A stretch of 64,000 nt of DNA, taken from Blasia pusilla. Lineage: Eukaryota. The notes beneath the pieces are model-generated. The model saw nothing but the letters and a program-made list of their open reading frames with translations, made no database searches and was not told the DNA's origin. The DNA lies in the NCBI GenBank assembly GCA_050084515.1, contig CM114271.1:8556001-8620000 (forward strand). Direction: 5' to 3'. A program made the translations under genes and the position numbers. Positions 4,057 to 30,210 of this stretch are shown in pieces. Each line of letters opens with the position of its first letter. The first letter of the stretch is position 1.

Positions 4057-4150
4057 CTGGGCCTTGCGGCTACCTTGGGTTTCCCCCAAGCGTCTGGTTG
4101 CTCCCATGACCCCAAGTTCTCACTCACCAAGGATAAGCTCTGATACTACA

Positions 4151-5116
4151 TGTCGTGCGACTACTTCTTTTGAATGTCAATCTTAGAGTTGCAGAAGCGT
4201 ACGTTCAGTAGGACATGCTCTCAACGCCACCCTGCACCCAAACACACTTACGATAGTCTGGTTTGGGTCAAACGGCCTTCCCTCATTCCTAGGCTCCCCA
4301 TACGAGCAAGTCTTCCGAGACTTTAACAAATTTTTTTGGTTAGTCTAAGCACCTTAAACGATGTCAGAGCGCCTAGCGGTCCCAACTCTCCAATAGACCT
4401 TGCATCAGTCCCCAACCAAGACTCAAAAATATGAGTTGCAAGTTGGAATCCAAAAGGGACCTCCAAAATCCATTCTATTGGACTTGGTTCGGGTTCCGAA
4501 GACCAACGCCAAAACTCCCGATCCATTCGGTGCCCTTGAGTCGCCTCGCGGCGCCAAAAGTGGGGTTTGAGTTCCAAAGCACCCTTGGAGACTTTCCCCC
4601 TTACTAGTACTTATGGGGACTCTCGGCCTCCCCCTAACTTTGGGGAAGGACCACCCAAGCCCCTCTTTTTGGCCCTCAACCCGACTTCCCATACTCCCCG
4701 TCGGATTTGGCCCATATGTCTGCTTTTGCTTGAGCGTTTGCAAAGATATTTGATGTGTTAGAATTTACTCAACATGAGCTTCCCAACGCTACCTTATTTG
4801 TCCCAAATGCATAATGAGACTAAAAGTTATGGTCAAAACTACAGTCAAAAACTCCAAACGTAAGCCGCGTCCCTAGTCCGGTTCTCACCCCATAGCCACG
4901 TCTCCTCTAAGACTCGACTTCTCTTAAGTCTAGGTTCCGCTTTTGGATCTAGTCTCCTTAGTCGCGAAAAAAAATGCATGAAACACTTGAAACGCTTGCC
5001 TCGCTTGGGCCTCACACTTCTGTTTTCCTAACTCCAAAGCAAATACCATCCTAGTGTGAGCTCTTTAGAGTTTGGATGTTTCGCTTGGTACTCGTTTGGT
5101 TACGAGGGTTGCAAAA
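4151..5116 (-). repeat. 5' LTR of the family A element
   Basis: Adjacent to the PBS; homologous to solo LTRs at 42743, 51082 and 55352. Confidence 0.85.
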
Positions 5117-5299
5117 GATGCCCCCAACAATCCTTGTCAGTTTTTGTTGGAAGGGTTAATGGACAAACCAATTTGAAATTGTCGTAGATCAAGAAGCTTT
5201 GTATGTTGTGGAAGAAACAGTGCGCAATTTTGGGATGGGACAAGAAAATTATGGTCGATCTTGCAAGCTCCCATAGTTGCCATTGCAATTTCAAAAAAA

Positions 5300-5800
5300 A
5301 TTAGGGTAAAAACTTTAAATCCTAAAATTGAAACCGTCACCGTCATCGTCACCATTTCCATTGATGTTCACCATTTTCTACGATTTTGGATGTCTGTCGT
5401 CGCCATCGCCATTCAACGCCGCGTCTGGCCGCTGCCGCCAAACTTGGTCGAGTCCCTCCATGCCACCACCATTTGTGCCCTCCTTGGCTTCAACAAGATG
5501 ACCTTGAATTTCATGGGGTTGAATTTTTTGTCTCACTTTGCTATGCTTTGAGAGTTGTAGCTGCTCGACGACGATCAAGTACCGTGTCGTGACACTTGCA
5601 ACTGCAACGCGAGATACCGTTGATGGCCGCACTGCACCGTCTTGATTGCATAGCCACACCATTATTGAGGAGCAGAGCGTGTGTTGTTGAAAGAGGAGGG
5701 TATGTTTTTGAATGCCGCATCCCATCACCGAGTGTCGTGCCGTTTGTAGCCGTTCCGTGTCGCACCGTACTATTGTACCCGCACTGCACAAGGGGGCTGG
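5300..5800 (+). repeat. Unclassified dispersed repeat, related copy at ~31050-31640
   Basis: Shared blocks: gtgtcgtgacacttgcaactgcaacgcg (~5584) vs gtgtcatgacacttgtagccgcaacgcg (~31398); gtgtcgcaccgtac...ccgcactgcac vs gtgtcgtaccgtat...ccgcactacac. Confidence 0.5.
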
Positions 5801-5897
5801 TATTCTGGAAGGAGAGAGTAAGAGAGGAGAGGAAGAGAGGAAGAGAGGAGAGTCTCTCTCCAAAAAAAGGGCCAAATCCTTAAACTATCTTCAAAAT

Positions 5898-8800
5898 TGT
5901 GATATCCACAATTTTGTACTTTTGATGAAATATATCTTTTTATTGAACAAAGACTTGTATATACATTATGATTTTGATTATTATATATTATTATGGTGAG
6001 GAAGGAGTAAGATTAAAGTGAATCACGAAGCTCCAAGGACAAGGTAGAGAGATAGAAAATCAAGGATTTGCCTAAGAGGAGAGGAGAATAAAATAATGAA
6101 GTCTCTAGACCCAACAAGAAGCTTCGGAACGACAACAAAGCTCTATGAAGTGCTTTGCTCTATAACGAAGCATAAAGAAGCATGAAGAAGAAGAGAAAGA
6201 AATACAAAGCAGAAAGAACGAATCACCTAGAACAAGAACAAAGAATGGAGAGCTTCGTCTTCAGATTAGGAGAAAGAGCTTCGTCATCAAGCGAAGCAAA
6301 AGAGGTCCAGACTTAGAAGCGAAGCTAAGATTGACAGTGATTTCAAGCGACACATAGTTAGAAGAGTTAGAATAGGAAAAGACGCAACCCTTTGTATCAA
6401 ATTGGTAGTTATGACAGTTTTGTTCTGCGGATTCATAGGGATCTCAGGAAAAGCAAAGAGCACCATAGATCTAGGTAGTTACAAATGTTGAAGAGCCACC
6501 AGCTTCATAAAAAATGCTTCGAATCTTTGGATCATTCCTCCTTCAGAGAGTATGTAAGAAGCATAGAAGTAGCTATCATTATCATTCTCTTACGAAGTCC
6601 TCGTGCTATAGAAATGCTCCGAGCAAGGGAGTAGTACCCTCTTGAGCTTGTATACACTTTGAAGCTTTCTCATTCTTGATGGAGTAGTAAAGCAATCATT
6701 CATTCATTCTGATGTGCGATGCTTATGTCTGAGTATTATTTTTGGGTCTGCAGAGTGAAGAGTGAATCAGGAGAACCTTTATCATCAATGGAATAATCAA
6801 CATAAAGTTGGTAGGAAAACTGTTTGACAGAGAGTAGCCTGCCGAGACGGATTGAGTTCCAAAAGTAGGAGAAGCCAGCTTTCATGTTGAGGTCTCTGTG
6901 ATGTTTCTTGATATCGAGAGGAAATTTACCTGAACATGCTGTCAACTCCACTAGAGAGAATTGAGAAAAGAAACTTTGGTACTAAGAAAGATCCAAAGAT
7001 ATTGATAAGACATTGAATATAAATCATACACATTTAAATACAACTATTACAACAGAATTATAATTTCAAACTCTCTTTTCATCAAACAATGATCCTCTTG
7101 GGGATCGAACCATAAAATTTTTGGCGCCGCTGCGGGGGATCATAAGCTTTGTTGGAGAGGGAGAGAGACACATGGGGAATCCAAGAGTCGAGAAAGAAGC
7201 CTCATCTCCTAGAAGATCCAACCAGCTAGTTCTTACTGAAGACCATATGCTATCTCTAGCTATCCCCCTAAGACAATGGATGAAAGAAGATAACAACCGG
7301 TTTGCTGCATTGGTGCTAGAAAAGATATAACAATTAATTAGTATTGTCAAAGAACCAGTCGCCGAACGGTGCTTCGCCCATGAACTTCAGTTGTACTTGG
7401 TGATGACCCAGTACTTCTATTTATGGGAGGAAAACCGGGCAGGAAGATTAAGAGCACTTGCACACTCCTGTAGGCTTTAGGAATTAGGAAGATCTAATTT
7501 CCCTCCAATTTTCCTATGTATATTCATAAGCAAGAATTGACAACCGATGAGGTGCTGGATTGGTCACAAGTTACTCCCGTCCGCTTACCAAGAAAGAGCG
7601 GAACGGTTACTAGTGGAAGCCGCGAAGTCACCCTGCCACGCAAAGCAACCCCAAAGCAACATCCACATACTTCGGCTTCACAGAAGGATGTGGAGTTCAC
7701 CGAATTGCCAAGACCGTAGCGCGGCAGAGTTAATTTTGAAACACCCTCTGAAACAGAGCCCGCAACCCACGAGGACTCCAACAAGATGCCTCGTGCTAGC
7801 AATCATCGTCCTGCTCTACGTCTCATGTCCCAGACAGCCAACGATATGGTGTGGTTCCTGAATTTGACTGTCTTGGTCATGAATCAACTACAACAAGTTC
7901 TCCACCTGGAAGACACAACCGCGATGGACCAGTATTTACAAGCGCTTGATGACCTCAACTGTAGGGCCCAAGCTTCGTCAGAGAACAAAGCATAGCGCAA
8001 AATGGTAGAAACAAACCTTCAACTGCGGGATCAAGAACTCGAAGACACTACGACGACACTTTGCAAAGTTCAAAGCGACTTGGTCCAGAGTCAATACGAA
8101 GCACGGAACGCACGCCAATGGGAGAGCTTGGCGATTAACATGGAGTGTGGGGCTGATCAGTTAGCTTTGCAGGTCAAGGAAGCTTTGCAACTGATTCAAC
8201 AATACCGACACCAAGTGCATCGTATCAGCCACGAATTCAAGAAATTGGCCACACAAGAACATCAAGAAACAAACAAAGACTTAGTGGCACACATCTCGGA
8301 GGCTACGGGTAAGATCGTTGTCTTGGAGGCAGAACAGAAGCTGCTCAAAGAAGTGCAGTTAGACCCAAAAGATGTCAAGGAGTTCGTCGACAAAGCAGGC
8401 AAGAGTTTCGATTATCAGATGAGCGAGGAGATCGCCTATATCAACAAACATTGGAAGCGAAAATTTGACAACCATACCAAGTCTCTCCCGGAAGTTGTCC
8501 CCAACATCCCAATTACTCTTGAAGAACTCCCACTATTTACTCCATCCGATGTCTTAGTCCAGAACGAAGTAATAGGAAGCTTGCTTGTTGTTTACAAATG
8601 GCGAGAGAAAATGAAAAATCACACCCCCAACATTATCAACAAACCTTCCACTATTCATGGTCGTTTGGGGCCTTCACCTGAGTTTGATAGTTTAGATGAT
8701 ACTTTTTATGGAATTAGAAGAAACATCATGAAGTGTTCGCCGGGGCGGCTCACATTTGAGGGAGGGGGTATGTGATACCCATAATTTTGTACTTTTGAAG

Positions 8801-9977
8801 AATTACATCTTTTTATTCAAAGAAGACTTGTATATACATTATGATTTTGATATTATGGTTGCGTAGTAGAAGAATGAGTGAGATTGAAGTGAATCACGAA
8901 GCTTCAAGGACAAGGTAGAGAGATAGAAAATCAAGGATTTTCCTGAGAGGAGAGGAGAATAAAATAACGAAGTCTAAAGACCCAGCAAGAAGCTTCGAAA
9001 GGACAATGAAGCTCTGTTAAGACCTTGTCTATGAAGTGCTTCGCTCCTGAATGAAGCATGAAGCATGAAGAATAAGAGAAAGAAGTACTTCGCTCTTGAA
9101 CGAAGCACGAAGAACGAAGCACTTGGAACAAGAATAAAGAATGGAGCGCTTCGTCTTCGGATGAGGAGAAAGATCTTTGTCCTCAAGCGAAGCAAAAGAG
9201 GTCCAGACTTAGCAGCAAAGCAAAGCTAAGATTGATAGTGATTTCAAGCCACATATAGTTAGAACAGTTAGAATAGGAAAAGGCGCAACTCTTTGCATCA
9301 GATAGGTAGTTATGACAGTTTTGTTCTGCGGATTCATAGGGATCTTAGGAAAAGAGAAGAATACCATAGATCTAGGTAGTTACAAATGTTGAAGAGACAC
9401 CAGCTTCATCAAGAACGCTTAGAATCTTTGGAACACGCCTACTTCAGAGAGTATTTAAGAAACATGAAAGTAGCTATCATCATCATTCTTTCACGAAGTC
9501 CTTATGCTGTAGGAATGGTCCGAGCAAGGGAGTAGTACCCTCTCGTGCTTGTATACACTTTGAAGTTTTCTCATTCTTGATGGAGTAGTAAAGCACTCAT
9601 TCCTTCATTCTGATGTGCGATGCGTATGTCTGAGTATTCTTTTTGGTATGCAGAGTGAAGAGTGAATCAGGCGAACCTTTCTCATCAATGGAATAATCAA
9701 CATGGAGTTGTAGGAAATCTGTTTGACAGAGAGTAGCCTACCGAGACGGATTGAGTTCTGACAGTAGGAGAAGCCAGCTTTCTTGTTGAGATCTCTGTGA
9801 GGTTTCCTGATGTCGAGAGGAAATTTACCTGAGCATGCTATCAACTCCACTAGAGAGAATTGAGAAAAGAAACTTTGGTACTAAGAAAGATCCGAAGATA
9901 TTGATAAGACATTGAATCTAAATTATTCACACCTAAATACAACTATTATAACATAATTGTAATTTGGAACTCTCTTT
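5898..9977 (+). mobile_element. Non-autonomous LTR element, family B (Athila/Tat-like): LTR-PBS-single accessory ORF-PPT-LTR
   Basis: LTRs 5898-~7115 and 8771-9977 (3' LTR truncated by ~40 bp), both starting TGTGATA; PBS TGGCGCCGCTGCGGGG 7122-7137; PPT gagggagggggta 8758-8770; no gag or pol motifs in between. Confidence 0.88.
7172..8775 (+). pseudogene. Family B accessory ORF with coiled-coil C-terminal half, interrupted
   Basis: ATG 7172, then ORF pieces 7516-7719, 7786-7995 and 8002-8775; YEARNARQWESLA also found at 47473-47715 (-). Confidence 0.65.
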
Positions 9978-10715
9978 AGGAGGGGTCACTCGCACGGGAG
10001 CAGCTGCACCGTCTAGTCGGGTTGGTCCCATGTTCAACCCTGTGGTTGAGTTCTTTGCTGAGTTGAGGGCGAGCTACCAGGGGGTACACACGGAGAAGTT
10101 GCGGAGCATCCACGACTTCCAGAGGCACCCGAGTGAGAGTTTGCGTGAGGCTTACACTCGCTTGCATCGGTTGATCAACGTCACTAAGTGGGTGACAGAG
10201 GCTCATGCTATCCAGTCATGGTACGCGATTCTGGACCGGATCCTACGGACACGGGTGCGGGAGGGGTGCTTCTTATGAACACCTCCCCTACGTTGAGAGA
10301 TGTTTTTAGGACCGCCGAGAACATTGAGCGCAACATGGCGGAGGAGAGCGTAGCCACCATGGGTTCTGGGCGAGAGCAGTCACGATTGTCTACACTACCC
10401 GTGCAGCAACGTGGACTCCGAGATAGGTCGATTGTGGCACCATGAGCTCAAGGAGGATACCGGGAGGCCCTGCCCTAGAGACATGCGCCTTCATATGCGG
10501 CTCAGCAGCAGCCGCCTACTATTACTTTTTGGTCATGTGGTGGAGCCCATCATCAGCGCGATTGCACTCGTCATGCTCATGGACGTGTGCCTCAGCATGG
10601 AGAAGGAGATGGTGTTGCACCAAGAGGTTATCAGTGTGACTATTGTCAAAGGTATGGTCATACACGTGCCAAGTGTTTCAGTCTACATCCTGAGTTACGT
10701 CCGGACTGATGGCTA
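9978..10715 (+). pseudogene. gag with two CCHC zinc knuckles (family M)
   Basis: FQRHPSESLREAYTRL capsid-like motif; (F)WSCGGAHHQRDC at ~10527 and CDYCQRYGHTRAKC at ~10635. Confidence 0.8.
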
Positions 10716-11372
10716 GAGAGGGCACCAGAGCGAGTAGTCGGTCCGGATGGGCCTAGAGATCGTGCACCAAGTGGTCCCGTTGGGGGACGAGGAGCTGGAG
10801 TTGCCCGACAGGGTGGTGGAGCGGCCCGTGGAGGAGGTAGAGTCCTACTACCTAGACGTGTCGAAGGAGATGATGGGCGTGAGGCTAGGATGGCTGATCA
10901 GATACATCAGCAACAGGAGCAGATTGCCGCTATGGCATTCAGATTATCCGATGCCGGATCCAAGGCATCAACATCATATGGAGCAGCGAGAGATATGGAG
11001 GATCCTGGTTGGATGTGCGGGGTTGCCTAGATGGAGGCCGCCGCAGTTGTGACGCGTGGAGCAGCCGTAAAGTTGGATCCACAGCGAGGGGAAGCCAAGA
11101 AATAGACTAGTCTCCCTCAATCTTTCACGTTGTCCAAGGCGATGAGGACCCCATCGATGGGTCCTGATCAGAGTTCCTGGAGAGTTGGTGTGCAGGCACG
11201 GAGGGCGATGGGAGAAGAGAGTCCGATGACTCCTATTGTCGATGCTCAGGAGGGGCATGTGTCGAGCACGTTGTTGGGGGCGGCCACCATTGTGTACCGC
11301 ACTCCTTTATTTTCTGCTTCCGATGTTATGACGTTGGGGGGTACGGCTGCCGAGGCTTTTTGACTAGCCGCT

Positions 11373-12000
11373 ATGCTACGTGAGCGTGGAGTTGGAATTC
11401 TTGCATCACGTTCAGAGGTGATTGCAAAGGAGGTGATGGACCTGCCCTTGGAGCGGATGCTCGGGCCGTCCATATCAGATTCATGGCAGGCTGCGGCTGC
11501 TAGGATGGCGGAGATGCCTGCTAGACCCGCGATAGAGCGTGCCATGGCTTCTCCTAGTGTTGTGTTGCAGGATAAACGAGGAGAGGTCTTCCAGTTGATG
11601 AGTCCCAGAGGTAGAGCTTTTAGTCCGCAACGTGTCTTGTTGGATTCAGGAGTGCAACCCCTAATGTTGGGGAAAGCATCATTCAGAAGATTGGGCTTGA
11701 CGAGAGCCAATGTGGAGCATTGTCCATTCCGGATACAGACATCCTTGGGTGGAGCGAGTACTACACACTATATCACCCGACAGGAGGTCGTGGTGAGGAT
11801 TCGCCCGGGACATCCTACACATGAGTCCGTGGTGCGAGCCAAGGCGATAGTGACTTATGCAGAGTCCTACGACGTCTTGGTTGGTGGAGCAGTGTTATAC
11901 CCGATGGGGTTTTCCCTGGATTACTGGGAGATGTCAGCATCCTACAGATCAGGATGGCAGTCAAGTGATGGGTGCCTTAGCTCATTACCCGTTCGATTCA
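11373..12000 (+). pseudogene. Retroviral-like aspartic protease (family M)
   Basis: RVLLDSG...YDVLVGG in ORF 11373-12368. Confidence 0.8.
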
Positions 12001-12358
12001 CATGTGCAGTGATCGAGCAACGGCCAGGAGAGATGGCGACCTTAGCAGTATTTAGCAGTGCCATCACTTGGCCTAGTGATTTGATTGAGGGACATGTCCA
12101 TGCAGAGGATACACCCATTCCTGACATTTCTATGGAGAGGAGTGTTATGGTAGCCGCATCATTCCATGGAGGAGAGGTGCCGTTGTGGGGCTCGACTGAG
12201 GAGCTTCGACGATTGGCAGATGAGCACATGCAAACCGCGTGGAGCAAGGCGTTTGCATCGGAGCATGACGGGTCTGAGGAACCCGAGGTAGCAAGGAGTG
12301 CTACGATGACACCCTTGGATACCACACCCTTTTTTGGTGTACCCCAGAGGAGGGTATT

Positions 12359-13290
12359 CGAGTGTTAGATCTCTTTGGAGGGATTACCACCGGGTTAGCT
12401 GTTGTTTTTCAGGTAGGAGTACAAGTGCAGCAGTACCCGTATGTGGAGAGTGATGATGTTGCAAGGCGCATCTCACTACAACATGTGGCGCAATTACCAC
12501 TATGTTTTCCCGACTTATTGTTTGCGTACATGGTACAGGGGATCCAGAGTTCCCTACCAAGGGATATTTCGTTGTTGGGGGCGCAGGACTTAGACCGATT
12601 AGGCACCATTGATTTGGTCATTGCCGGTTGGCCATATTAGGGCGAATCGAGTCTTGGACGAGGCAGCGGGTTGGCTAACACTCGGTCCAGGTTGTTTTGG
12701 GTGATGTTGAGGGTTTAGTCTCATTCTCCATCCTATATTTTGGAGAATGATCCGATCTTAGGAGACTCCATGTCACGGGTGGTAACGAGTGCTCATCAGG
12801 TGCATGACTGGATCGGCCCAGCAATGTTCTTGGATGCGGCGAGTGTAGGTTCTAGAGCCCATCGCCCGCGTCTATGGTGGACCAACTTGGTGTCCCATGC
12901 GATGTTACGGAGGGCGTATGCGAGAGTGGAGCGCCCCTCCCATTTGTTAGTGGATTCCATTCTGGATCCAAGTCTTCGCTCACAAGCAGTGAGGCACGAT
13001 GATCGGCCACCATTGACTATGGTCAACAGGGTAGGCAAGCCGCAGGCAGCCTTTCCAACGTTTGTGAGTTTTCCCGCTTCTTATGCATACAAGGAGGCTG
13101 GTCTTGGCTTGGTTTGGGATGACCACGTTCAGAGGTTGGTGGAGCCCAACGCCGACGAGAGAGAGCGGGCGATGGGATTTCCCACAAGAGTGACGGCAGT
13201 ACCGTCAGTATCAGAGGCATCACGACGCCATGTCTTGGGTCACGCGATGGACCTGAACAACTTGACATGGATCTTCAGCTTGGGAGTGGC
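12359..13290 (+). pseudogene. DNMT3-like DNA (cytosine-5) methyltransferase domain within gypsy pol
   Basis: Motifs in order: I LDLFGG (12365); II YVE; III DI; IV IDLVIAGWPY*G (degenerate WPCQG, 12626-12643); VI YILEND (12743); VIII AHRPRLWWTN (12857); IX ERAMGFP (~13163); X RRHVLGHAM (~13222). Confidence 0.9.
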
Positions 13291-13611
13291 TGAGCAACGT
13301 CGGATGAGATCGCGACAAATCACAACAGTTGTGTTGGTGAGCCCCATGCCTATCGAGACGATGGAGGCAGTGGCTAGGGGCGAGACCCGAGGAGATCGAC
13401 ACACCAGGGGAGATCAAGAGAGACACCCTTGGACTTCTTGGGATGTTTTGCAGGTACGCCAGGAGATGAGAGCGTGGTTCCGGGCACTGCATGTGGAGGA
13501 GATCAGAGTTTGCATTTGGCTGAAGGAGAGCGGTCGAGTGTTGTTGTTCGAGACGGGGTCGCACCATAGCAACCACCGATATCCGCGCCGGAGAGTCCTA
13601 CCGTAGTCACG

Positions 13612-15040
13612 ATGGAGACTTGGGAGCCAGATATGGGCCCAAAGTTGACAGGAGGAGAGCGGCGCCGAATACATGAGTTCCTCTGGAGTTATAGGAGTTG
13701 CTTTGCCTTTAGCATGGAGGATTTGGGTACGCTGAAGGGACTAGGGATCCGCATTGAGTTGTCGAGTGATACGCCGATCTTCCGAAGACCCTACACGTAT
13801 AGTGATATGGAGAGGGCTGTGATTTAGAGTAGGAGCCAGGACTTGGTTGGAGCAGGACTAGTGGAGATGTCGGATGGGGAGTATGCATCTGCCACTGTCA
13901 TGCCCGTCAAGAAGGATGTGCATGGCAACTGGACGGATATGCGGATGTGTGGGAATTATCAAACTATCAATCGGCAGACGAAGTCCGATAGGTATGCCAT
14001 GCCCACCCCTGAGGAGATCTTTGATACGATTGGTCATGCAAAGGTTTTGATTCATTGATTTATGAGCCGGATACATCATCACCGCACTATCGATTGGAGG
14101 ACGAGCGTAAGACGGCATCGATCCTCAGGGGAAGGATTGTTTGTACCACTGGCGATTCTTACCATTTCGGTTCAAGAACGTCCCGGATGAGTTTCAAAGG
14201 GTCATGGATAGGATCTTGGCTGGTGTGGATTTTTCTAGGTGTTATATTGATGACATCGTAGTCTTTAGCGCCACGGTTGAGGAGCACGAGCGACATCTCA
14301 GGAGGTGTTTCGACGATTGCAATTACATGGGCTGAAGCTACATCCAGGCAAGTGCAAGTTCTTTTACGACTAGATTGAGTACTTGGGTCATACAAGATAC
14401 CCAATGGGTCTTGGTGTTCAGCAGACAAAGGTAGAGGCTATCTCACGCATTCCACGCCTACAGATATGAGCCGTGTTCGGGCATTCATGGGATTGGAAAA
14501 CTTCTATCGGCGGTACGTCAAGGGATTCAGTTCAATTGCGAGGACGTTGACCTTGCTGACCAAGGTGGATCACGAGTGGCACTGGGGAGATGAGAAGGAG
14601 TGAGCATTTCAGTTGCTCAAGGACAGGTTGACGTGCGCACCCATCTTGAGGAGACCAATCAAGGGGCGTCCTTTCCAATTGCACCCATATTGGAGCATGT
14701 TGGGGCTTGGAGCGGTGCTCACCCAGCATGATGATGAGGGTAGAGAGTTTGTGGTGGCTTACGCTAGCCGCTCAAACAATGTTGGAGAGGTGAAGTATAG
14801 CTCGTATGAGGGTGAGTGCTTGGCTGCGGTGTGGGCTATCGCGCATTTCAGGTGTTACTTATTCGGCAATCCCTTTACCATCATCACTGATCATCAACCA
14901 CTAAAGTGGTTGATGGAGTCCGACAAGCTTACAAGGAAACTTGCGAGATGGGCTTTGTGATTGCAGGATTATGATTTTTAGGTGGTACATAGACCTGGGA
15001 TGCTCAACCAGGATGCATATGGGTTGAGTCGTAACCCATG
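13612..15040 (+). pseudogene. Gypsy RT and RNase H (family M), frameshifted
   Basis: YASATVMPVKK, MRMCGNY, LPFRFKN, CYIDDIVVFS; LGAVLTQ...YSSYEGECLA...TDHQPL. Confidence 0.93.
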
Positions 15041-15379
15041 CCCGAGTCAACAAGATGCGATTGGAGCTCGATGGCATGGAGAGAGTGATGAGGATTCAGT
15101 GCCAGGATGGCACGCGTCGGCCTATTTAGGCATGTTGGCTATGGAGAGCCAGAGTGTGGAGACTTCAATGGCGAGGTCTAGTGGAGAGTCCAACAGATGG
15201 CCGAGATGTTCATGATGATGGAGTAGTCTTGGAGTGCCTTCGTACTGGCAGCGTTGCGAGCACCGTGGGTGCTAGAGAGCGGGATCGGATCCTACAGCGG
15301 GCCAGACGGTTCCGTTGGGAGGGGACACATGTTTTGGGGGTTTGGGAGGATGGAAAAGTACGCGTAGTGCCGTATCCTT

Positions 15380-16500
15380 CGCATAGAGCACGACTAGTGC
15401 AGCATGCCCACGAGGAGTTGGATTACTTTGGGATGAAGCGGACGTACAGCTTGCTCCAGATTCAGTATTGGTGGCGAGGCTTGCAGACTGACGTTCAACA
15501 GTTTGTTGCCAGGTGCATGGTGTGTGATCGGGTCCGAGCATCGTTCAATGCTCCAACTCCACAGTTGCATCCATTACCGATCTTGGGCTTAGGGTATAGA
15601 TGGAGATTGTATTTTGCAAGACCTTTGCCTTTGACGGAGCGTCACAGTCGTTATGTGTTGGTGATGGTCGAGCACTTCTCGAAGTGGATCGAGTTGGTTG
15701 CATTGCTTGACAAAGCGAGTGAGGGAGTAGCTTATGCCTTCCTTGAAAGAGTGTTGAGTCATTATGGCGCACCAGCTGAGGTGTTGACAGACTAGGGTAT
15801 TGAGTTTTGCAGTGAGTTCCAGGCCTTGTGTGATCAGGCGTTGATCGACCATCGCACGACTTTGTGAGATCATCCTGAGGCGGATGGATTAGCGGAGAGA
15901 GTTGTGCAGACCGTGAAGAGGGGTTTATGCAAGTATGGCTTGCAGAGAGGTCACCTAGGAGATTGGGACCTCCAGTTGCCCTGGTTGGCGATGGGATACA
16001 GATTCAGCATGCAAGCATCCTTAGCGTCTTTTTCCCCATACTTGCTACTTTATGGCTGAGAGCCAGATTTACCTGCAGCCATTCGTCGAGATGCTGGTGA
16101 GGTGTTGGACCTTGATGACCTAGATGTATGGATACGAGCATATTCTCAGAGGGCTAAGTTGTTTCGGAGAGTGATGCCCATGGTGTTCGAGAACTTGGCG
16201 ATTGCGCAGCATCGAGATACGTTGAGGTATGCGACTATTCGGGATGGTGGTTATCGACCAACTATCTCGAGGTTTCATCAAGAAGATTATGTCTACTTGC
16301 AGCAGACGGCACCCACGACGTTGGATGTGACTGTAGGGCGCACTATCTTGAGAGTGCATGACGTTTTTCCATCCAATGTTCTCTTGCTGGAGGGACACGA
16401 TGGTATGGTATGGAAGGACCATGTGCGTAATTGTGCGTCATGTCACCTTCCTAACATTGATGGTACAGTAGATCCGAGCTTAGCAGTAGTTTCTGCAGGC
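15380..16500 (+). pseudogene. Integrase (family M)
   Basis: H...YWW...CMVC zinc finger; VMVEHFSKW; VLTD; HPEADGLAER. Confidence 0.9.
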
Positions 16501-16647
16501 TTGCGTTGTATGTTGTGTGGTTCTGCCCGTGGTACAGCCACGATGCTAGTCCGTGATGGATGTTCGTGAGGTTGGCGTATGGCATGTCTGACGCCACCTC
16601 TCACTAGGATTCCTCGGGGACAATGGATGTGTCCTAGATATACATAG
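16501..16647 (+). pseudogene. C-terminal PHD finger of pol, degenerate
   Basis: Read through TGA: CMLCGSARGTATMLV(R)DGCS*GW(R)MACLTPPLTRIPRGQWMCPR(Y)T*, which has C4HC3 spacing and the PHD L.PPL..IP.G.W.CP signature. Confidence 0.85.
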
Positions 16648-16833
16648 AGGAGATACTAGGTAGGTTTTGATTCCAACTTTTTCTGTGATATGGATGACAG
16701 AAAGGCGACTAAGGATGGGGCCACATGAGCACCCGGCCTTCTTGCTCTTAGCGTCCGAGAGATGTATGTCATGGTAGGTAGGGATAGATGGCTATCTGGA
16801 GTTAGAGGGACCTAACCACCAGCTAGGGGGGCG

Positions 16834-17601
16834 ATTGGAGATATTTTAGTACTTCTTGTCTCCTTATTTGGATGCCATGAGTTAGCATGGGATCGTGTGT
16901 GTTTGTGTGTGTGTTCGGTGACAGCGATGTATGTTGTGTAGCAATGTGTATGCGCACGACAGTTGTCACGTCTAGGATAGATCGGTGAGATCTAGTAGAG
17001 CGCCTTCGTGAGTAGTGGAGGACACACTCAATAGGTCGAGGATGACCTGTTGAAGCCCCGAGAAACTTGAGAGAGCAGGTTTCCCCTTCGTTTTGGCTCA
17101 TTTGGAGTCATATTGAGGAACTTACTATTTTAGGTAAGTACCATCTTGAGTATATGATCGACTTTGTATTTTTGGTAAGTGGCCCTTGACCTCCTACATC
17201 AAGTCAAGAGCCAAGGAGGTGACTTGGGAGAATAGGTTATCATGGAGAGAGCTTGCCAGAGGGGAGGGGTATACCTCAAGGAGAGAGAGCTTGAGAGCTC
17301 ATTCTCTGTTTGTTGAACTTCTTGGCATGAGGCGGCGGAGCTATGGTCCCTTGCCTTGTGAGTGTAACCCGAGCCTCTCATTAGGAGAGTGGGTTTGGTT
17401 TAACATGAGAGAGAGTGCACACCTTTGAGAGCTATGGTGTGAGATGGTGTAGAGAGAAATTGGATCTTACTTTATTGGAGATATTTTAGTACTTCTTGTC
17501 TCGTTGTTTGGATGCCATGAGTTAGCATGGGATCATGCGTGTTTGTGTGTGTGCTCGGTGACAGCGATGTATGTTGTGTAGCGATGTGTATGCGCACGAC
17601 A
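16834..17601 (+). repeat. 3' LTR (16964-17601) preceded by a 128-bp duplicate of its own 3' end (16834-16961)
   Basis: Near-identical 128-bp direct repeats at 16834-16961 and 17474-17601; junction GACA-gt-TGTC. Confidence 0.8.
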
Positions 17602-19290
17602 AGGACTTAGTAGGGAACTCTGTCTATAAAATTCAGAGGCTTGTATGCTTTACAGAGTACCACCCACTTCACCAGTGGAACGAGTTTTCTTACACAATCT
17701 TGTTGCGCAATATCTCCTTCAAATATGAGTCCAAAATATTGAGTCTTGTATCACTAGCATGGACTTACCTGCATGAGTGTATTCATAGGAAAATATTCCG
17801 CCATGAATCATGCATTGTTGATGAAATTCAAAGGCATGCAACTTGTAACCTTTGGACCCAAGTTCATGCCACTAAAATCATATCGAAGGCAATGGAGGTT
17901 ATTGGACCTCATATGAAATTTGAGCTATGTATTAAGTCCATTCCTGCTGTTAGTACACCATCTACCCAAGAAGGCAGAACCAACAAGTTTACAAATGAGC
18001 CAGATCTTTCACTGCATTTATTGAATGTTGAACAACATGATCTATACCATAAGATCCAAGATCTATCCTCTGGTTTAGTGTTGATCACCGTCCCACCAAG
18101 TTGTGGTAAGACATTCTTTACACATTTCATGCAGTCATACTGGTCGAGTCTCTTTGTTCCCACGTTGCTCCCTGCTACAACAGGAATTGTTGCACTTCGG
18201 CTGCACAACACTGTTGTCACTGTTCATTCAGCATTTGTTATACCAATAATGGGCGACTTACCTTCCATGCATACAACCTCAGACCAATACATGTGCTTAA
18301 GAGACGCAAAAATTATCATTATAGATGAGTGTTCCATGCTAACGCCCCGCATGCTACAGATTGTTGCCCTAAGGTTGCATCAGGTGTCTCCGTCATCCAG
18401 CCTTAGCCCTTTCTTGACTAAACTTGTAATCTTATTAGGTGATCTCTGCCAGTTATCCCCCATATGCCGCCACAACAAAGGCCCTATCTGCTATTTTTGT
18501 CACATTTCTTCCTCACCATTCTACCCTACTATGGAAATATATACCCTTGCCACACCAATGAGGCATGTTGATGACCATGAATTCCTAAGTTTCTTGTCTC
18601 ACATATGAAGGGATTTACAAACAAAGGACTTGATAGATAGTTGTCTTGGTAGGTGCTTTGTTGATGAAAATACCGCCTCTGATTATATAGGCAAAAACAT
18701 TCATATTATTTGTACACACCGTATCGATGTCCAATTATTCAACCTTATTGCACTTCGCATACTATTTGGCGCAGTTGAGATCTTCCCAATACATGTAACC
18801 ACATATGCTCCTCCCGATCCACACTTTAACGAATGGATATCCGATACTCAATTTCATGAGTTGCAATTTTTAGCTATTGGTTGCACAGTATTGCTCACAA
18901 CAAACATTGACATGCCAAGTCAAGCTACGAACGATGCACAAGCTACCGTTCTAGATTGTACGTACAAACAAGATGACCTTATTGCTATAATAGTGAGCAT
19001 CCACTCAAGCTGCGCTACTGTCCGGCTTACCCAAACAATGTTTGCTACTCTAAGATGCGGAGCCAACGAGAAATACCACAAACATACATTTTCCCTAGTT
19101 CTTGGCTATACCATGACAAGACACAAGAGTCAAGGCCTCACAATCAAAGGCAAGTGCCTACTCAACATCAGATCATCGTTTGCACCTGGGCTAACTTATG
19201 TAATGCTATCTAGAGTCCAAAGTAGGTCACAACTACAAATCCTCGGTAACCTACACCCTGAGGATTTCAAGGTCTTTAATCAGCAGAGTC
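17602..19290 (+). pseudogene. Helitron-type PIF1 helicase relic
   Basis: Degenerate Walker A (VPPSCGKT), ATTGIVA..TVHSAF, IIIDECSML, LLGDLCQLSPI, MRH, TRHKSQGLT and YVMLSRV in ORFs 17571-18608 and 18630-19508, separated by a stop; upstream YTILL...TYLHEC resembles the RepHel linker. Confidence 0.88.
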
Positions 19291-22200
19291 ATGGCAATTG
19301 TTTAGTGGGTGCTAGAACAATGGAAATCAAAGATGGTTCACTAAGAAGACGTGCAAGGATGTCAAGTCTACCAGCTAGCGCCTCATCTGTACCAGACATT
19401 GTTGGAAAATTAAGTGCGACACCACATTCTGCTCCCATCTTGCTTAGCGATAGTGGTTCAGATGATTACCATAAGCCTACTCTGAATATGCAAGGTGTTA
19501 AGCCATAGTTTGATCAACACATTCATCAAGAGACTTAGGTTTGTACAAGCATTTCTGTGCAATAATTATGTTTTCGGTGTTATCAATAGGCTGAACTGAA
19601 AATAACACCTTCAGTTACCAAAGTCCTATCGACTTTGCAAAGATGATACTCGATGACATGCCTACCTTACCCGAAAAGCCCACTGTTCAATTTGTACCAC
19701 CAACCGATGCACAACTTTGATATGCAAACAACCTTGGGTTATACCACTCCCATTATTATAGAGGAATCACAAGCCGTCTCATTAGCCACATGATAGACCA
19801 ACGCAAATCGTGGGCAGCTTCATTCAGGGAATTAAGAACGCAGCCACTAGTCACAGGTACTTATTTCACTCAACTGCTTTTTAGCTATGTTGTTGTAAGA
19901 GCTTTTTCTGTGCATCTATCTAAATTTCTCTGACAATATACTACGCACACTCAGGGATACAAAAGGAGATCATGGCTCACAAGCTGGGTTGAGTTCAATG
20001 AATCAGAGCTTACACACCAACAAGTTGTAGTAAATTATGCAAGATTTACTTGAGGAATAAAGCCCGATCAGTTCTAGGATCTTTGTGTTATCATGAAGCT
20101 CCCTCTTGAAATGTTGATAAGTCTGTCGTCCGCAAAGACTGCCCACCTTCTTGACAGTATAAAAATAGCCCGGGAAGCTGGAGCAATTTCTGAGTACCCA
20201 TCTGATGCAACTTAAATTTTTCCTTCGTCACATTCAACTTCTTCTTCACAATATACAGATGATCTCCTACCTGTTCACTGTCTCCAGCCTCATTTTTATA
20301 GCGAGGGCACTTCATACCAAGGTTTGAAACTGCCAAAATCGCCGAGTAAACGACAGTGCCTTTGACAATTATGTGGCCATGTAAGTGTAAATTGTAAAGG
20401 TGATTCCACTTATCGCCTCTCTGCTCTTCTTCTTGAGACACTTACTTTCGCTCTAATTCTCACCCATTTATTGTATTTCATTGTTTGAACCAGGTATGCA
20501 ACTTCGGCAAGAAGAATTCACAAAATCCTCACCAGTATTGAACCTTGCTTGCTTTTTGCTACGCTTTCTTGAGAGGCAGATCCTCTCTCTCCATGCATTC
20601 AGATCCTTAAATTTTCATGCTCAAGTGCATGAGTCATTTTAGAAGTCGTTACATGGCTAGGCATTGTCTTAGAACTGATTCTGCATTATATGCACACCTA
20701 CATGGTGTCCAATTTTTGCTACCCAATTTCGGTCATATTTTGCGACATGTGTGTAATGTGATTTGCAGTGGTTGTTCCTACATGCTGAGCCCATCTCCAG
20801 CCTTGGCAACTTCTATGCAAGCATATGTTCATTTTCATGAATAAAAACCCCGTTGTCATTGTCTTGTTTAACTGTGTGCACTTTACTTTTTCAAGTACGT
20901 TAATTTCCTGTCTTGAGTCTTCATTGCTTCATGTGCTATACAGAAATGCACGACTGGTGTTTAATCACATGTACATCTTCTATTCGACACATGTTTGAGT
21001 TTAGCAGCATATACACATTTTCCATGTTACTTCCCACTTGTCTTGTGATGTTGTTTTACAAGGGAAAAACTGCAGGCGGAAGCCAAACAAGTACCTACCG
21101 TACTCCTGTCTCGCACAACAATGCAACTCGCAACAGACAACGAAATCGACGCCGCTCAATCAACATAGAGGTTGAGCTGCCAGCCATGGGCGACCCTATA
21201 TACTGCAGCGATAGTATCCCAATATCGTTATTTGATGCTGTACTAAAAAAACATAGGTATTGTTCAAGATCGCCTAGATGAATCTGAGGAACATAATGAT
21301 ATTCTACGCACTGTTATGCATTCGGTAGCGGATGACGGCAAGTACAATGTAGAGTAGTACCAAGTCAAGTCAGTTCAGAAAAAGCTACTCCTACTTCAAA
21401 AACATTTCCTGGACAACTATAGTTGTAATTCTGACCTCCATAGCTTTATTTCAGATTTGCAAGGCTTGTGTGAAGGCAAGAAGCCTGGTCCTATGTAAAA
21501 ATATAGTTTCAGCATTGTTGCTCATGCAAAAGTTAGCTCTCCTTCACTTATGTAGACTTATGTAGACTTATACATACGTTCATAATTGTCTATTCCTCTC
21601 TAAATCTGTGGCTGCCGAGTATGCCGTCAGGTTCACAAACTTGAGATACTTGTGGCTAGTGCCACCATGTTATCTTCCATGTGTTTTTGAGTATGAGCTT
21701 GCCTACATAATCTGAAGCGTTTACAGCTCATCTGATGTTCTCGTGCAATGCTAGAATGTTTGATTACACCACAACCTGTTGCGTGCCAATCATCTCTGTT
21801 TGTTTGCCTTGGTTTTACTTTGAGATCTGCTTACTTTACTTGCAACCTTTGATTTCATAGAAACCACTTGCACACATTCCACTTTATACACACATTTAAC
21901 AAGCACTTTGCAATCATCATCTTACTGAACTTAATTGTTGGCTTTCACATGTCGGCCTGTAATAGCTATGTTTACTAACAATAGATTGCATTTTTATAAC
22001 AAAGCTTGCTCATTGGTTGCATTGCACAGTGTGCATTGCCAGGCCGCATACTTGTGAAGGATCGGTTTGTTTCGCTGCATTATTCGTTAGAAAATTGGTC
22101 TGGTCACAAGGGTGAGGTTGATACGACCACTCACACATGCAATCCGGCTCGTCAATGGATAAATGTCACCTAGGGCCAGATCGCATGCATGGCCTCACGG

Positions 22201-23208: not shown

Positions 23209-23748
23209 CTAGTGCAAAAATGATGCCTGGTAGGCAGGTGGGGGAGGTGGGAGACCACTTCCAAACTGGTAACTACTATATGTGGCAGAAGGATTGCTAT
23301 ATCCACCTGAGCCATAAACAGGTGAACCTAAACCCTCTGCAGAGTAAAGATACGAGCTAGAAAGCGAAACAGGACTGCGACTTCCACCAGTATAGGTGGC
23401 GGAGTATCCCCCTTGGGCTCGCCTGTCGTAGTTGCTTTGGGCGGCAAGGCTGTAAGAAGAGACGCCAACACCACCTGCATACTGGCCCCTCTCAGAACCA
23501 CGGTAGTAGTTCCTTTCCTGGGCGGCTGAGCCTCCTCCATAGCCACCTCCACTGCCACCACTAGCTCTGGGACGTTTAGTTTGAGCTTTCACAGCAACGG
23601 CAGCTCGCTTCCTATCTGACTTTGCTTTCTCTAGTTGTGCCACACGCTTCTGCAATGGAGCAGAAGGATACTGACTCTCAAGTTGGTATTCCTCGATACA
23701 TTTTAGAACTGCTTTCAGTGCGCCAAGTTCCTTCATGGTAGCGTCATT
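23209..23748 (-). CDS. FRL: FRIGIDA-like protein, exon 3
   Basis: AG acceptor at 23750-23749; KELGALKAVLKCIEEYQLES...LQKRVAQLEKAK FRIGIDA C-terminal motif; G/Y/S-rich tail; TAG stop. Confidence 0.92.
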   Translation of the reverse strand, partial: NDATMKELGALKAVLKCIEEYQLESQYPSAPLQKRVAQLEKAKSDRKRAAVAVKAQTKRPRASGGSGGGYGGGSAAQERNYYRGSERGQYAGGVGVSSYSLAAQSNYDRRAQGGYSATYTGGSRSPVSLSSSYLYSAEGLGSPVYGSGGYSNPSATYSSYQFGSGLPPPPPAYQASFLH

Positions 23749-23857
23749 CTGAAGGAGACAATTCAGGACGTACTGTTAGAACCCGATGCTAGAATCAGGT
23801 GGTAAAAAAAATTAGGACACAATCGTCTAAAAATTTACTGATACTTGGGGGAAGTAC

Positions 23858-24033
23858 CTGTGCTGCTGCAGAACTATTCCCATTCTTCAGTATATTTTGT
23901 GCTGTCTTTCGAGCTTCTTTAAGGTAAGCCTTTAAAAGGGGCACAGGCTGCACACGATCCATAATTCCGAATGAATGGGCGAAAGACAAAGCTTCAATTT
24001 GTTTGCCTTCTTTGGCCAACCTGTCCACCACAT
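23858..24033 (-). CDS. FRL: FRIGIDA-like protein, exon 2
   Basis: AG/GT boundaries with consistent phase; DVVDRLAKEGKQIEAL...PVPLLKAYLKEARK. Confidence 0.92.
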
Positions 24034-24759
24034 CTGTCGACACACACAGAGAAAATTAAGGCCTAAGACCGAGACAGTCTACATATCGACTTGGCCCACT
24101 ACGTTTCATGCGACGCCCCATCATAGAGAGCAAGAGGGAGGAAGAAGAATGAGAGGCGTGGGGGTATGCTGAGAGGAGGACGACGAGGAGGTAGTGGGAG
24201 GATACAAGGGTGGCGATGGTTATCAAGCACCTGGGTGGACAAGCGGAGCTCTTTGGAAGATTTGCTTACCTTGCCTCTACAGAGTGCAATCAAGACAACA
24301 TTCCAGTAAAATGCTTTCTGCGACTCCGCACTAACCTCATACCTCGTTAGCTTAAATCTGAAACGGTTCTCGACTCAAGGAGGGAGGAGGAAAGAATGAT
24401 CATCTTCCAAGTGCTAAAGGAGACACTCTTGACCTCTGTGCAGCGAAAATCAAGGGATCCCAATAGTGCCTCAGAGAAGCCTAGGACTCTAAGGCTACAA
24501 AACTTCCAACGAGTCAGATCTGTTCTTAGGAACAGCACACTTACAACATGAGTGTCAAGGAACAGGATTGCCAGGAGACAGCGTTGCTGTAAGATGTAAG
24601 CTATAATTCAAGCATAAAATAGGGAAAATTAATACGCCAGCCCAACATGGATCAGCATGCTACAGATCCTCATCAGGGAAAGCCAAGAGGGGCAATCCAG
24701 AGAGTGGCCCAGCATGTGCCTCGGCCTCGACTTAAGGCCGACTTGAAAGGGACACCAAC

Positions 24760-25990
24760 CTGGTATCTTGGCCGACAGTCCAAGGGACCGGCAGAGCGCA
24801 GGTGACTGCCTGCGCCGCGCAACAGCAGTGACGAGTTTGCACAGCTCATCATCATTATACTCCGAAGCAATACCAAAAGTTGCCAGTAGCTGTAGAAAAG
24901 CCTGAGCATCCAAAGAATTGCCAGACGAGGCATCTCCATGGATTGTCATCTTGGACCTCCATTGGTCTGCGACTTCCTTGGCCGACTCCTTGATATTGGA
25001 GGGCACCACGGGGTGATCCGCTCCTAGTTCAGGATCAGCCAACACCACAGCAAGGCACTCCAGAAGGAGAATGCAAGCACGGCGATTAGCCGATGCTCCT
25101 GATTCCTTCTTGTCTGCCCCTTGGTTGCTTGCGATGGTCCCTGGCTCTGGGTGGTGGTAGCCATCCAACGCACTAAGGACCAAGCGTGCAGGGTCAATCG
25201 CACACTGAAGTGCAGAGGGCAGTTCAGCGCGTAAGGCACCAACATCTTTCCGATGGTCGACGATATACTTTCTCAGCCCATCACCATCCATATTCTCGCA
25301 CAGTGACTTAAGCTGTGGACGCACTCTCACCTCGGGCACTACTGCTTTCAGAGCGGGAGTGCCAGCAGTATCGGTCTTGCCAGCATCCTTGCTAGCGGCA
25401 CCGTTAGCCGCTTCCTCTTTAACAGAGACAGTTACAGTTGCAACGGGAGCTCCAGAAGGCTTTGGCGATGCAACATCTACCTCCATGGCCATAGCACTAC
25501 TAGGGCCGTTTGCTGCCACGGGGGTTTCTGCCTTGATGGTTTCAGCTGCATGATTGACAGCGGGCGTCTCAATAATGGCGTTCTGAGCGGCCTTAGCAGC
25601 GGCTTCAGCTTCAAGCCGTGATCGTTCTTCCAACCACTTGCGTTTCTCCTCGAAAATAGCTGCAATAGCAGAGTCTTTCTGTTCTTGCACACGAGACAAT
25701 GATGCTTGCTCTCTGGCGGAAACGGCCTCTTCCCGTTTGTCAAGGGCCTCTTGTGTTTCTTTGGTTTTGGCCTCAAAAGACTTCTCCTTCGCAGCCAGAT
25801 CTTCCAAACGCTTCTGCACGGCTATTTCAACTTCTGCAAAGTGTTCTTCGAGCTCTTTCCATTCAACAGTGCAGCTTGCCAAAGCAGCTCTCTGAGTCTC
25901 AAGATCGTTAAAGGCTTTCTGCAGCCGTTCCTTCCTTTCAGGAACCGACTCCATGGCTACAGCAAGAGGATCCTCTGTTACTGCCGTCAT
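24760..25990 (-). CDS. FRL: FRIGIDA-like protein, exon 1 (spliced CDS 1947 nt, 648 aa)
   Basis: ATG 25990; N-terminal coiled coil; LKSLCENMDGDGL, DPARLVLSAL, RRACILLLE, AQAFLQLLATFGI; GT donor at 24759. Confidence 0.93.
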
Positions 25991-25999
25991 GCGTCGACA

Positions 26000-26950
26000 G
26001 ATCTATCACAGGTATAGAAACGAGAGCACAAAATAATTCTTTCTGGTATGGACTCCACACCGAAAGACTAAACTGTTCCGACGTGATGTAAAACGCATAA
26101 ACCCTAACAGCTACCCAGGCTCTCTCCGACTCTACACAGCATGACAAACCAAAATGCAAGGACACGGTCTGCTGTTCGCCCAGAGTGATTAGCCCAGACC
26201 CTATTTGCGGAGAACCCGTCTCGCAGAACCGGTGAAATTGCTATCCGATCTAGAAATCAATCGGTACCGAAGATGTTCTCAGAGCGCGGGAAGAAGAAGG
26301 TGTCACATAGACAGAAATGCAAATGCAACAACTACGAAAAGGAAGACCCTGATTGTGGCATCAATAGACGACCCAAATCTGGGCGATTAGAGAAAAGACG
26401 CGACGACACTCGGACAGAACTGCCACTCTCGTCTGTGGAGGTAAGTGCCACAGCACTCTAGTGACGAATCTGCTCCTCTGCACGCTCTCGCTCTCCCTGT
26501 CGCACCTCTTTGATAATAGCACGACCGCTGGACTAAGACAATAGCCCCCCCGCGCTCGTACCCAGAGCAACGAGCGAAAGCAAGGTCGGTGGGCGTAACA
26601 GATAGGGCAAACTTTGACCGTCCGATCTTTCATCGTGCGTCACTCAAGCCTCTCGCCCCGCTGGAGTACGCCGACGTTGCGAACCGCCTAACATTCCAAG
26701 CAATACGTACGCACGCTTTCATTCCCCAATATGATCTAACTTGCTCATCCATACAAAATGGACATCCTTCCCAGGCCTTGTGGATTCTTTTGCCCGGGCT
26801 GCCCGGGAACTTAGCACATAAGCCGCAAAGGTTTTCAGCGGTTGCGGTAGTTTTGCGGTGGTCATTCCGGGTCGTCCGGAGAAGATATTTTCCCGGATTC
26901 GAACGCATGCTAGTTGAATGAAGTGAATCGATCCTTTGTGGTTTCGCAAT
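26000..26950 (-). promoter_or_regulatory. Putative 5' UTR/promoter of the FRIGIDA-like gene (CpG-rich)
   Basis: Immediately upstream of the ATG; visibly richer in CG than the flanking decayed repeats. Confidence 0.45.
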
Positions 26951-28879: not shown

Positions 28880-29788
28880 GTTGTGATAGAGACCGAAGAT
28901 TAAGTCTAGTAGGTCATGGGTGACCTACTTGCAAGTAGTGTAACCTAATAGAATAGGTTTCCCTTTTGTGTAGAACCATATGGAGGTTATATGAGGAACT
29001 TATTATTGTGGTAAGTTCCCCATTTATATAAGCTTTGACTTCCTATTCGTGGACAATGGCTCTTGATCCACTATTGTAGGTTTAGGATCAAGTAGATGAC
29101 CTATGTGCGCATATCATCAAGGGGAGGATTTGGCGAGAGAGGGTATACCTCAAGGTGACGAAGCTATGGTGTTCCTTGCCTTATGAGTAACCCCATCCTC
29201 TCATCGTGAGAATGGGTTTGGTTTGATGAGAGAGAGTACTAATTTGTAGTGTCTATCGTAGCCTTGCGACCATAGACCTCGTGCCCTGGTCAGACAGTGC
29301 TTGAGACTACGATGGATGTAGAGATAAGAAAAAGTGAAGAAGGTAACATATAAAAGTAGGGAGACACTCTCATATAGTGTCGATGTTGACCAAAACATAT
29401 GTTGGTGCAGTGCTCCCCAAGTGTCACGAAGAAGCTCTTCACCACACCATCTACTTTACCTCACTATGATCCCCAAAAAACATTACTTACCAATCCAATA
29501 CCTTTGGGCAATGAATCTTGGCTACTTGATGTATTGAACACTTCTGGTGTTACGAGCTTATCAATATCAACATATGCTCATACTTTGTGTGTTGTCGATT
29601 TCGTGCACGAGACCAAGTAGTGACTAGAGGTTTCATCCCCGTCACTACATAAGGTAGGAGATTTAGTCATGCTCTCATCATGCTTTTCTTATGGTTCAAG
29701 GGTATTTCACCCCATCCTACACTTGAACTTAAGTTGGGTTCCCAAGCAAAGGGTTCACCACAAGTAGTTATTCATATTTAGGATATAC

Positions 29789-29871
<83 letters not shown>

Positions 29872-30179
29872 CAAATATCTTGATGGCTTCCTCCATGCTC
29901 TTCTATTGTGAGTGTTTGCCCAGTACTTTGGTTATGGTATCCATAAGTTTTTTCTTATCTTGCTCCCATAGTTCAAGCCCTGTTGGGAGCTTCATTGATT
30001 GGTCAATATCTTTCACCCTTTTTGTCCAAGATTTGGTAAGGGATATACCCAAAGAGAGGGAGCTTGGGAGCTCATTCACTCTTTTTTGAACCTTTTGGCA
30101 TGAGGCAATGGAGCTAAGGTTCTCCTTGCCTTGGGAGTATCGCAAGCCTCTCATAAGGAGAGTGGGTTTGGTTTGACAT

Positions 30180-30205: not shown

Positions 30206-30210
<5 letters not shown>

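Follow-up and report, generated by a model that had tools for sequence, protein, structure and literature searches.

A probable C-terminal integrase PHD finger in a decayed DNMT3-carrying Ty3/gypsy element of a liverwort genome

Why should the pol gene of a retrotransposon end in a cysteine-rich stretch that resembles a histone reader, in an element which also carries a DNA methyltransferase-like domain? The question is raised by positions 16501–16647 (+) of the window, by which the whole 64-kb stretch of DNA analysed here is meant. The original prediction for this locus, made from the letters alone, was that a degenerate C4HC3 PHD finger hidden by a TGA ends pol where chromoviruses carry a chromodomain, and that the finger directs integration, so that one element supplies both a reader and a writer of chromatin. 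The best overall explanation of the locus is probably that it holds the C-terminal integrase PHD finger of a dead DNMT3-carrying Ty3/gypsy element in a liverwort genome.

Frame 1 of the forward strand translates over 16501–16647 as RCMLCGSARGTATMLVRDGCS(TGA)GWRMACLTPPLTRIPRGQWMCPRYT(TAG). The finger occupies 16507–16644 with its first cysteine codon at 16507, the translation is interrupted by an in-frame TGA at 16567–16569, and the pol stop, a TAG at 16645–16647, lies two codons past the last ligand position. With the TGA read as X, the stretch matches profile positions 1–46 of the 47 in PF00628; scanned alone, the 48-residue finger scores 28.7 bits (E 1.4e-6), above the curated cut-off of 24, and inside the 195-aa C-terminal piece it scores 23.6 bits (E 5.3e-5), slightly below that cut-off. 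Cysteine is kept at five of the eight zinc ligand positions, with R, R and Y at positions 3, 5 (the His) and 8, and the full C4HC3 order is absent. As the window finger is 56–58% identical to the fingers of its three closest aligned relatives, and as cysteine or histidine is near-universal in the relatives at the lost positions, the match to PF00628 is, on alignment, far beyond chance. Where the window has its TGA, the relatives have T, R, K, A, S or Q (alignment of 249). The stretch can be classed by its sequence as a decayed member of the PF00628 PHD fingers, and the profile scan of the read-through translation, proposed together with the original prediction, bore out the degenerate finger behind the TGA at the end of pol.

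The finger does not stand apart from the element. The integrase extends over 15130–16506 (+; PF17921 E 1.2e-13, PF00665 E 1e-4), with an H2C2 zinc domain at about 15376–15540, a DDE core from about 15646 and a C-terminal module, and its frame 1 is open from 15130 to 16644 save for in-frame stops at 15793 (TAG), 15865 (TGA), 16057 (TGA) and 16567 (TGA). A tblastn search with the relative P0153 yields a single alignment across integrase and finger, from 15205 to 16638, with 61.5% identity over 478 aa. From this shared frame and single alignment it follows that pol closes with the finger, read in the integrase frame, the order being integrase C-terminal module, PHD finger and stop. In chromoviruses, the chromodomain sits at the end of pol after the integrase C-terminal module, and the finger occupies the corresponding place, as had been claimed. 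A host gene or exon that abuts the integrase by accident, or a chance cysteine-rich stretch, might be suspected, given that the finger region is found in one window copy only and that its Pfam score in context falls slightly below the cut-off. Such a reading has next to no chance of being right and was rejected: the finger shares frame and alignment with the integrase, it is decayed like the rest of the element, and the same integrase–finger junction recurs in hundreds of relatives from several algal genera. A fusion created by gene models is unlikely as well, as P0152 is a single-ORF transcript and the spacing is uniform among relatives.

The finger is the last part of a Ty3/gypsy element of 6.7 kb (about 9950–16650, +) with the domain order gag, protease, DNMT3-like, RT, RNase H, integrase and PHD, which is a pseudogene with several frame changes and many stops. 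The gag part is recognisable from a fragment at 9952–10278 (+; PF03732 Retrotrans_gag, E 0.0033, 18.1 bits, under the cut-off) and from a CCHC zinc knuckle at 10479–10709 (+), read from the translation as C-x2-C-x4-H-x4-C in CDYCQRYGHTRAKC, where the sole Pfam match, zf-C2H2_10, is weak (23.6 bits, under the cut-off). The protease-like region at 11421–11993 (+) was located by tblastn to residues 598–791 of P0160 (E 1.8e-10), a stretch that contains Asp_protease_2 at 663–711 of P0160; the window ORF itself has no Pfam match. Reverse transcriptase is spread over three frames at 13612–14454 (+; PF00078 E 3.8e-8 on 14111–14335, tblastn pieces to residues 17–301 of P0153), and RNase H lies at 14379–15158 (+; PF17917 E 5.3e-33, PF17919 E 6.7e-29, tblastn to residues 278–536 of P0153). 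By Pfam and tblastn, the element thus shows the Ty3/gypsy pol order of protease, RT, RNase H and integrase, and it is collinear by tblastn from protease through PHD with P0160, whose best solved match is the Ty3 Gag-Pol structure 7q5b (E 3.5e-101). Pfam detects no chromodomain in the window element, which is therefore not a chromovirus by that mark.

Between protease and RT lies a decayed DNMT3-like C5 cytosine methyltransferase domain (12353–13291, +), identified by structure-sequence match, alignment and tblastn. Its best matches among solved structures are DNMT3C, 3A and 3B (E 3e-8), tblastn aligns it with residues 949–1275 of P0160 (E 1.5e-65), and PF00145 gives 14.1 bits only. Motifs I, IV, VI, VIII, IX and X can be recognised in an alignment with P0227, P0159, P0160 and P0247. 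The catalytic cysteine of motif IV is replaced and a stop follows, and two in-frame TAG stops fall at 12638 and 12716. As this copy is a pseudogene, its finger is inert, and neither finger nor DNMT-like domain is predicted to work in it. The claim that one element supplies both reader and writer therefore fails for the window copy, with three ligands lost and a stop in the finger, no catalytic cysteine in the DNMT and frameshifts in pol; it stands at the level of the family, described below.

The ends of the element are less well preserved. The 5′ side seems to be truncated at about 9978 by an unrelated repeat, 8771–9977, which is 87% identical to 5898–7078. The surrounding region (3287–9977, +) consists of three tandem units of about 2.9–3.1 kb each that are 72–91% alike and hold a 259-aa ORF (7996–8775) without a Pfam match; the last unit adjoins the 5′ end of the Gypsy-DNMT3 element and apparently truncates it. 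Downstream of pol, a possible 3′ terminal repeat region (16834–17601, +) is bounded by two 128-bp direct repeats of 95% identity, 16834–16961 and 17474–17601, that stand 640 bp apart; a purine run lies directly upstream of 16834. Part of it (17032–17475) resembles 28910–29237 and 30039–30244, two stretches that precede the second decayed copy. When the window was compared with itself at low stringency, nothing on the 5′ side matched the region after pol. The repeat pair could represent a tandem or split terminal repeat, like the DIRS-like repeats of the K. nitens Gypsy-Dnmt3 family (de Mendoza et al. 2018, PMC5890265). Directly past the possible 3′ repeat begins a PIF1-like helicase ORF (17562–19508, +; PF05970 E 8.3e-15) with one in-frame stop, which may belong to a Helitron-type or other helicase-bearing element.

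Three more decayed fragments of the Gypsy-DNMT3 family are present at 32581–35987 (+), 42526–44755 (−) and 56373–57128 (+), with 65–72% DNA identity to the main copy, and they cover gag to DNMT only. Self-comparison and tblastn detected no integrase or finger in these three further copies. A family consensus for the finger could therefore not be drawn from the window, and, with only one integrase-PHD copy there, the state of the family in the liverwort genome rests on that copy.

Whether the finger is a regular part of the family can instead be judged from its relatives. A phmmer search with the read-through integrase-PHD query against 1.84 billion representatives returned 47,299 proteins at E<=0.001, of which the best 150 all have E<=1.4e-85 and mostly align up to the last residues of the query; together with 108 further proteins from a second search, they form a set of 258 relatives. 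The full C4HC3 pattern stands at the homologous site in 134 of the best 150 representatives, and a complete in-frame finger is found there in 238 of the 258 related polyproteins. The 20 relatives in which the full pattern is absent include K. nitens, the sole named streptophyte protein. Pfam agrees, with an E<=1e-5 PHD match in 22 of 23 long relatives and, by hand count, precomputed PF00628 annotation in 117 of 120 relatives among the matches listed. In the alignment of 249 relatives, Cys or His fills seven of the ligand columns in 235–239 of the 236–240 sequences covering them; the eighth column was lost by the extraction of the stretches and is covered by the C4HC3 pattern count instead. In intact relatives, the finger is thus a conserved, predicted zinc-binding C4HC3 module fused to the integrase. 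Neither of the outcomes that would have counted against the original prediction, a loss of the ligands across the family or a finger out of frame with the integrase in intact copies, was encountered.

What follows the finger varies. The closest relatives, with 61–65% identity, end 0–15 aa past it, like the window copy, and in 124 of the 238 relatives with a finger, many of them from the chlorophyte branch, more than 200 aa continue beyond it. The named hosts among the matches are Haematococcus lacustris, Pleodorina starrii, Tetrabaena socialis, Chlamydomonas reinhardtii, C. eustigma and Klebsormidium nitens. The C. reinhardtii, Haematococcus, Pleodorina, Tetrabaena and C. eustigma proteins are 41–45% identical to the window integrase-PHD.

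The place of the window element among these relatives was assessed with a FastTree tree of 250 integrase-PHD stretches, which omits nine of the 258 relatives because their blastp alignments did not exceed 380 query residues. The window falls into a clade of 42 leaves (support 0.998) together with K. nitens KFL_009030040 (P0227), in which 27 proteins have the domain order of the window, none has the other order described below, and 14 could not be classed. A full finger is present in 36 of the 41 relatives of this clade; the five without it include the K. nitens protein P0227, a partial record that ends just before the finger site. This protein is 52% identical to the window integrase over 77% of the latter, and all DNMT motifs align. 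By tree and domain order, the window element can be assigned to the Gypsy-Dnmt3 clade first described as KnitGypsy-Dnmt3, with which it shares a Ty3/gypsy pol and a non-rearranged DNMT3-like domain before RT (de Mendoza et al. 2018, PMC5890265). The window copy differs in being dead and in having a land-plant host, a liverwort. That study demonstrated that retrotransposon DNMTs can methylate CG sites de novo, and the term PHD does not occur in its main text (PMC5890265).

If the finger is an integral part of the integrase, the next question is what it would read. A profile built from 24 family fingers matched 86 solved sequences, with E-values from 4e-21 to 1e-11 for the best group. Among the best 60 of the 86 are CHD4, KMT2C/D, Lid/KDM5A/B/D (PHD1 by their coordinates), ATXR5, WSTF, BAZ2A/B and DPF2/3, as well as PHF12, PHF21A, KAT6A/B, UHRF1/2, ORC1b, AIRE, CHD5 and similar proteins, and these solved fingers are presumed here to be readers of the unmodified H3 tail (K4me0, R2, or K14ac with K4me0). 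The family signature ...LLCD.C...H..CL.PPL...P.G.W.CP.C is shared by CHD4, KDM5A/B PHD1, BAZ2A/B, PHF21A, AIRE, UHRF1 and ATXR5. The latter are host chromatin proteins, however, and their presumed preference for unmodified H3 need not transfer to the family. The finger points, short of proof, to a reader of the K4me0 type, and the nearest solved sequence is a weak guide to specificity since similar PHD fingers bind different marks or non-histone partners. Specificity may even differ within the family: many chlorophyte members have an acidic loop behind the second Cys, and in the branch of the window this loop is neutral or basic.

Many PHD fingers are readers of H3K4me3, and the original prediction left the H3K4 state open, so that the family finger might read this mark instead and steer integration to active promoters, like some retroviruses and Ty elements that insert at transcription start regions. 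This is very unlikely. None of the cage-type H3K4me3 readers ING, BPTF and TAF3 is among the best 60 of the 86 solved matches, and the residue three past the fourth Cys, which is taken to be Trp in cage readers, is Gly in 214 of 239 relatives, leaving no aromatic residue at the presumed cage position. New insertions of the Chlamydomonas element Gypsy-7a_cRei, moreover, favour intergenic DNA (PMC9940879).

A reader of the K4me0 type would accord with the following mechanism for the intact relatives. The protease would free the integrase-PHD protein, the finger of which would bind the N-terminal tail of unmodified (K4me0) H3 and thereby keep the intasome at nucleosomes remote from active promoters, in parallel to the chromodomain that tethers chromoviruses on H3K9me. 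The DNMT3-like domain would act as a module of its own, inherited alongside the finger, and could methylate the new cDNA or the insertion. Histone binding, specificity and an effect on insertion sites are all predicted from sequence for the finger of this family. Finger-directed integration is plausible, and the chances that the intact fingers work by such tethering to the H3 tail are about evenly poised. Chromoviruses offer a precedent, since their integrase carries a histone-tail reader at its C-terminus, an arrangement that has served as a model for directed integration (Gao et al. 2008, in PMC6673714), although they use a chromodomain and H3K9me rather than a PHD zinc finger, so that both the fold and the likely mark differ.

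The original prediction also paired the finger with a writer. Pfam detects the DNMT of this family poorly, with DNA_methylase (PF00145) in 6 of 23 scanned relatives and in 16 of 120 with precomputed annotation among the matches listed; a home-made HMM was therefore built from four relatives and iterated once, and all of the following counts of DNMT-like domains depend on that model. It finds the domain in 146 of the 258 relatives: 134 have finger and DNMT, 104 the finger only, 12 the DNMT only and eight neither. Where at least 1000 aa lie upstream of the finger (122 relatives), 95 have a DNMT-like domain, and most of the remaining 27 begin just before RT, so that an upstream DNMT would fall outside the predicted protein. 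Integrase-PHD and DNMT3-like domain are, to judge from these domain assignments, co-inherited across hundreds of algal and streptophyte elements. It is in such relatives that a single element would supply reader and writer, and the nearest counterparts of the window's own DNMT among solved structures are DNMT3A/B/C.

The two modules occur together in two domain orders, which argues that their pairing is selected and not accidental. The DNMT-like domain lies between protease and RT in the window element, in K. nitens KFL_009030040 (P0227), in P0159 and in P0160. In the chlorophyte branch, by contrast, it lies between RNase H and integrase, in a stretch of about 600–750 aa that mostly lacks Pfam annotation and is DNMT-like by the home-made HMM (P0008, P0012, P0014, P0205 and others), and the proteins often extend past the finger. 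In 130 proteins, the DNMT-like domain stands directly upstream of integrase-PHD in this manner, with a median of 529.5 aa from the end of the DNMT to the finger. Motif IV of the chlorophyte DNMT-like domains has E-C as its majority consensus instead of P-C, and it is lost in the C. reinhardtii gene model CHLRE_09g398141v5.

Such proximity allows for another function of the finger, namely that it serves the DNMT and not the integrase. In animal DNMT3, the ADD domain senses H3K4me0, and the finger could likewise sense this state and license or position the DNMT of the element, with no effect on the choice of integration site. The co-occurrence in 134 of 258 relatives would fit, as would the arrangement in 130 of these 134, so that DNMT, integrase and PHD could conceivably share one mature protein in the chlorophyte branch. 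Nevertheless, RT, RNase H and integrase stand between DNMT and finger in the branch of the window, and the C. reinhardtii relative P0205 has kept its finger intact though motif IV of its DNMT-like domain is gone. PHD fingers are also a common accessory of other Chlamydomonas transposons, for which the text consulted mentions no DNMT (Craig et al. 2021, PMC8557442). A role confined to the DNMT is for these reasons unlikely, though a good deal less so than the reading of H3K4me3, and tethering of the integrase is preferred.

A broader view can be put forward tentatively, with somewhat less than even confidence. Within the green lineage, one ancient line of Ty3/gypsy elements, represented by chlorophytes, Klebsormidium and the liverwort fossils, may have carried a DNMT3-like writer together with an integrase-fused PHD reader of the K4me0 type since before the placement of the DNMT diverged. 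On two polypeptides it would rebuild the logic of DNMT3 and its ADD domain, landing on and methylating chromatin that lacks H3K4 methylation, and the stretch of about 600–750 aa in the chlorophyte branch, including that of the C. reinhardtii gene model, would be derived from a DNMT.

Parts of this picture have precedents. De Mendoza et al. (2019) point to the many retrotransposons whose PHD fingers could recognise histone marks. Gypsy-7a_cRei and REM1 of Chlamydomonas resemble the window element in that their Gypsy Gag-Pol protein includes an accessory PHD finger (PMC9940879). For the active Gypsy-7a_cRei, a role of the finger in targeted insertion or in avoiding harmful insertions has been suggested (Craig et al. 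2022, PMC9940879), and 86 new insertions were intergenic 2.6 times above expectation, a bias that, according to the authors, could reflect selection in culture. No DNMT is listed for Gypsy-7a_cRei in the text of that paper, and none of the relatives found here was identified as Gypsy-7a_cRei or REM1. The Chlamyvir clade offers no further parallel: PMC3350952 gives it chromodomains and never mentions PHD. EpiLTRs, which are LTR elements with DAM, DNMT and chromodomain, resemble the family in uniting a methyltransferase and a histone reader in one unit, but their reader is a chromodomain, their DNMT domain is DNMT4-related rather than DNMT3-related, and they live in other hosts; their DNMT acquisition has been set apart from that of the streptophyte Gypsy-DNMT3 elements (bioRxiv 10.64898/2026.05.21.726589).

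Since PHD fingers in Chlamydomonas retrotransposons (PMC8557442, PMC9940879) and DNMT3 in a K. nitens Gypsy (PMC5890265) have already been published, the idea is not new in kind. Mildly new are the breadth and constancy of the pairing of PHD and DNMT, its two domain orders and the decayed copies in a land plant; within the limited library searched on finger–DNMT pairing and Marchantia, no text gives the Gypsy-DNMT3 clade an integrase PHD finger or a liverwort occurrence. The window itself carries little weight, its finger being a fossil in a dead element, yet its decayed copies add a land-plant genome to the range of the DNMT3-carrying Gypsy clade, which had been reported from Klebsormidium. 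At the family level, the value is modest and lies in a model, testable in active Chlamydomonas relatives, of how a retrotransposon might both select and mark its chromatin.

The window also contains sequences of other origin. Copia-type integrase and RT ORFs are found at about 38427–41401. Remnants of RT, RNase H and integrase at 126–1343 (−) and 62824–63958 (−) come from a different Ty3/gypsy family, with 26–31% protein identity to the relatives of the main element. The host can be placed among the Marchantiales liverworts by a FRIGIDA-like gene at 23209–26002 (−), split into two ORF pieces (PF07899 E 9.8e-64 and 8e-16), of which the piece at 24629–26002 (−) has 92% identity with a protein of Marchantia paleacea and 90% with one of Riccia fluitans.
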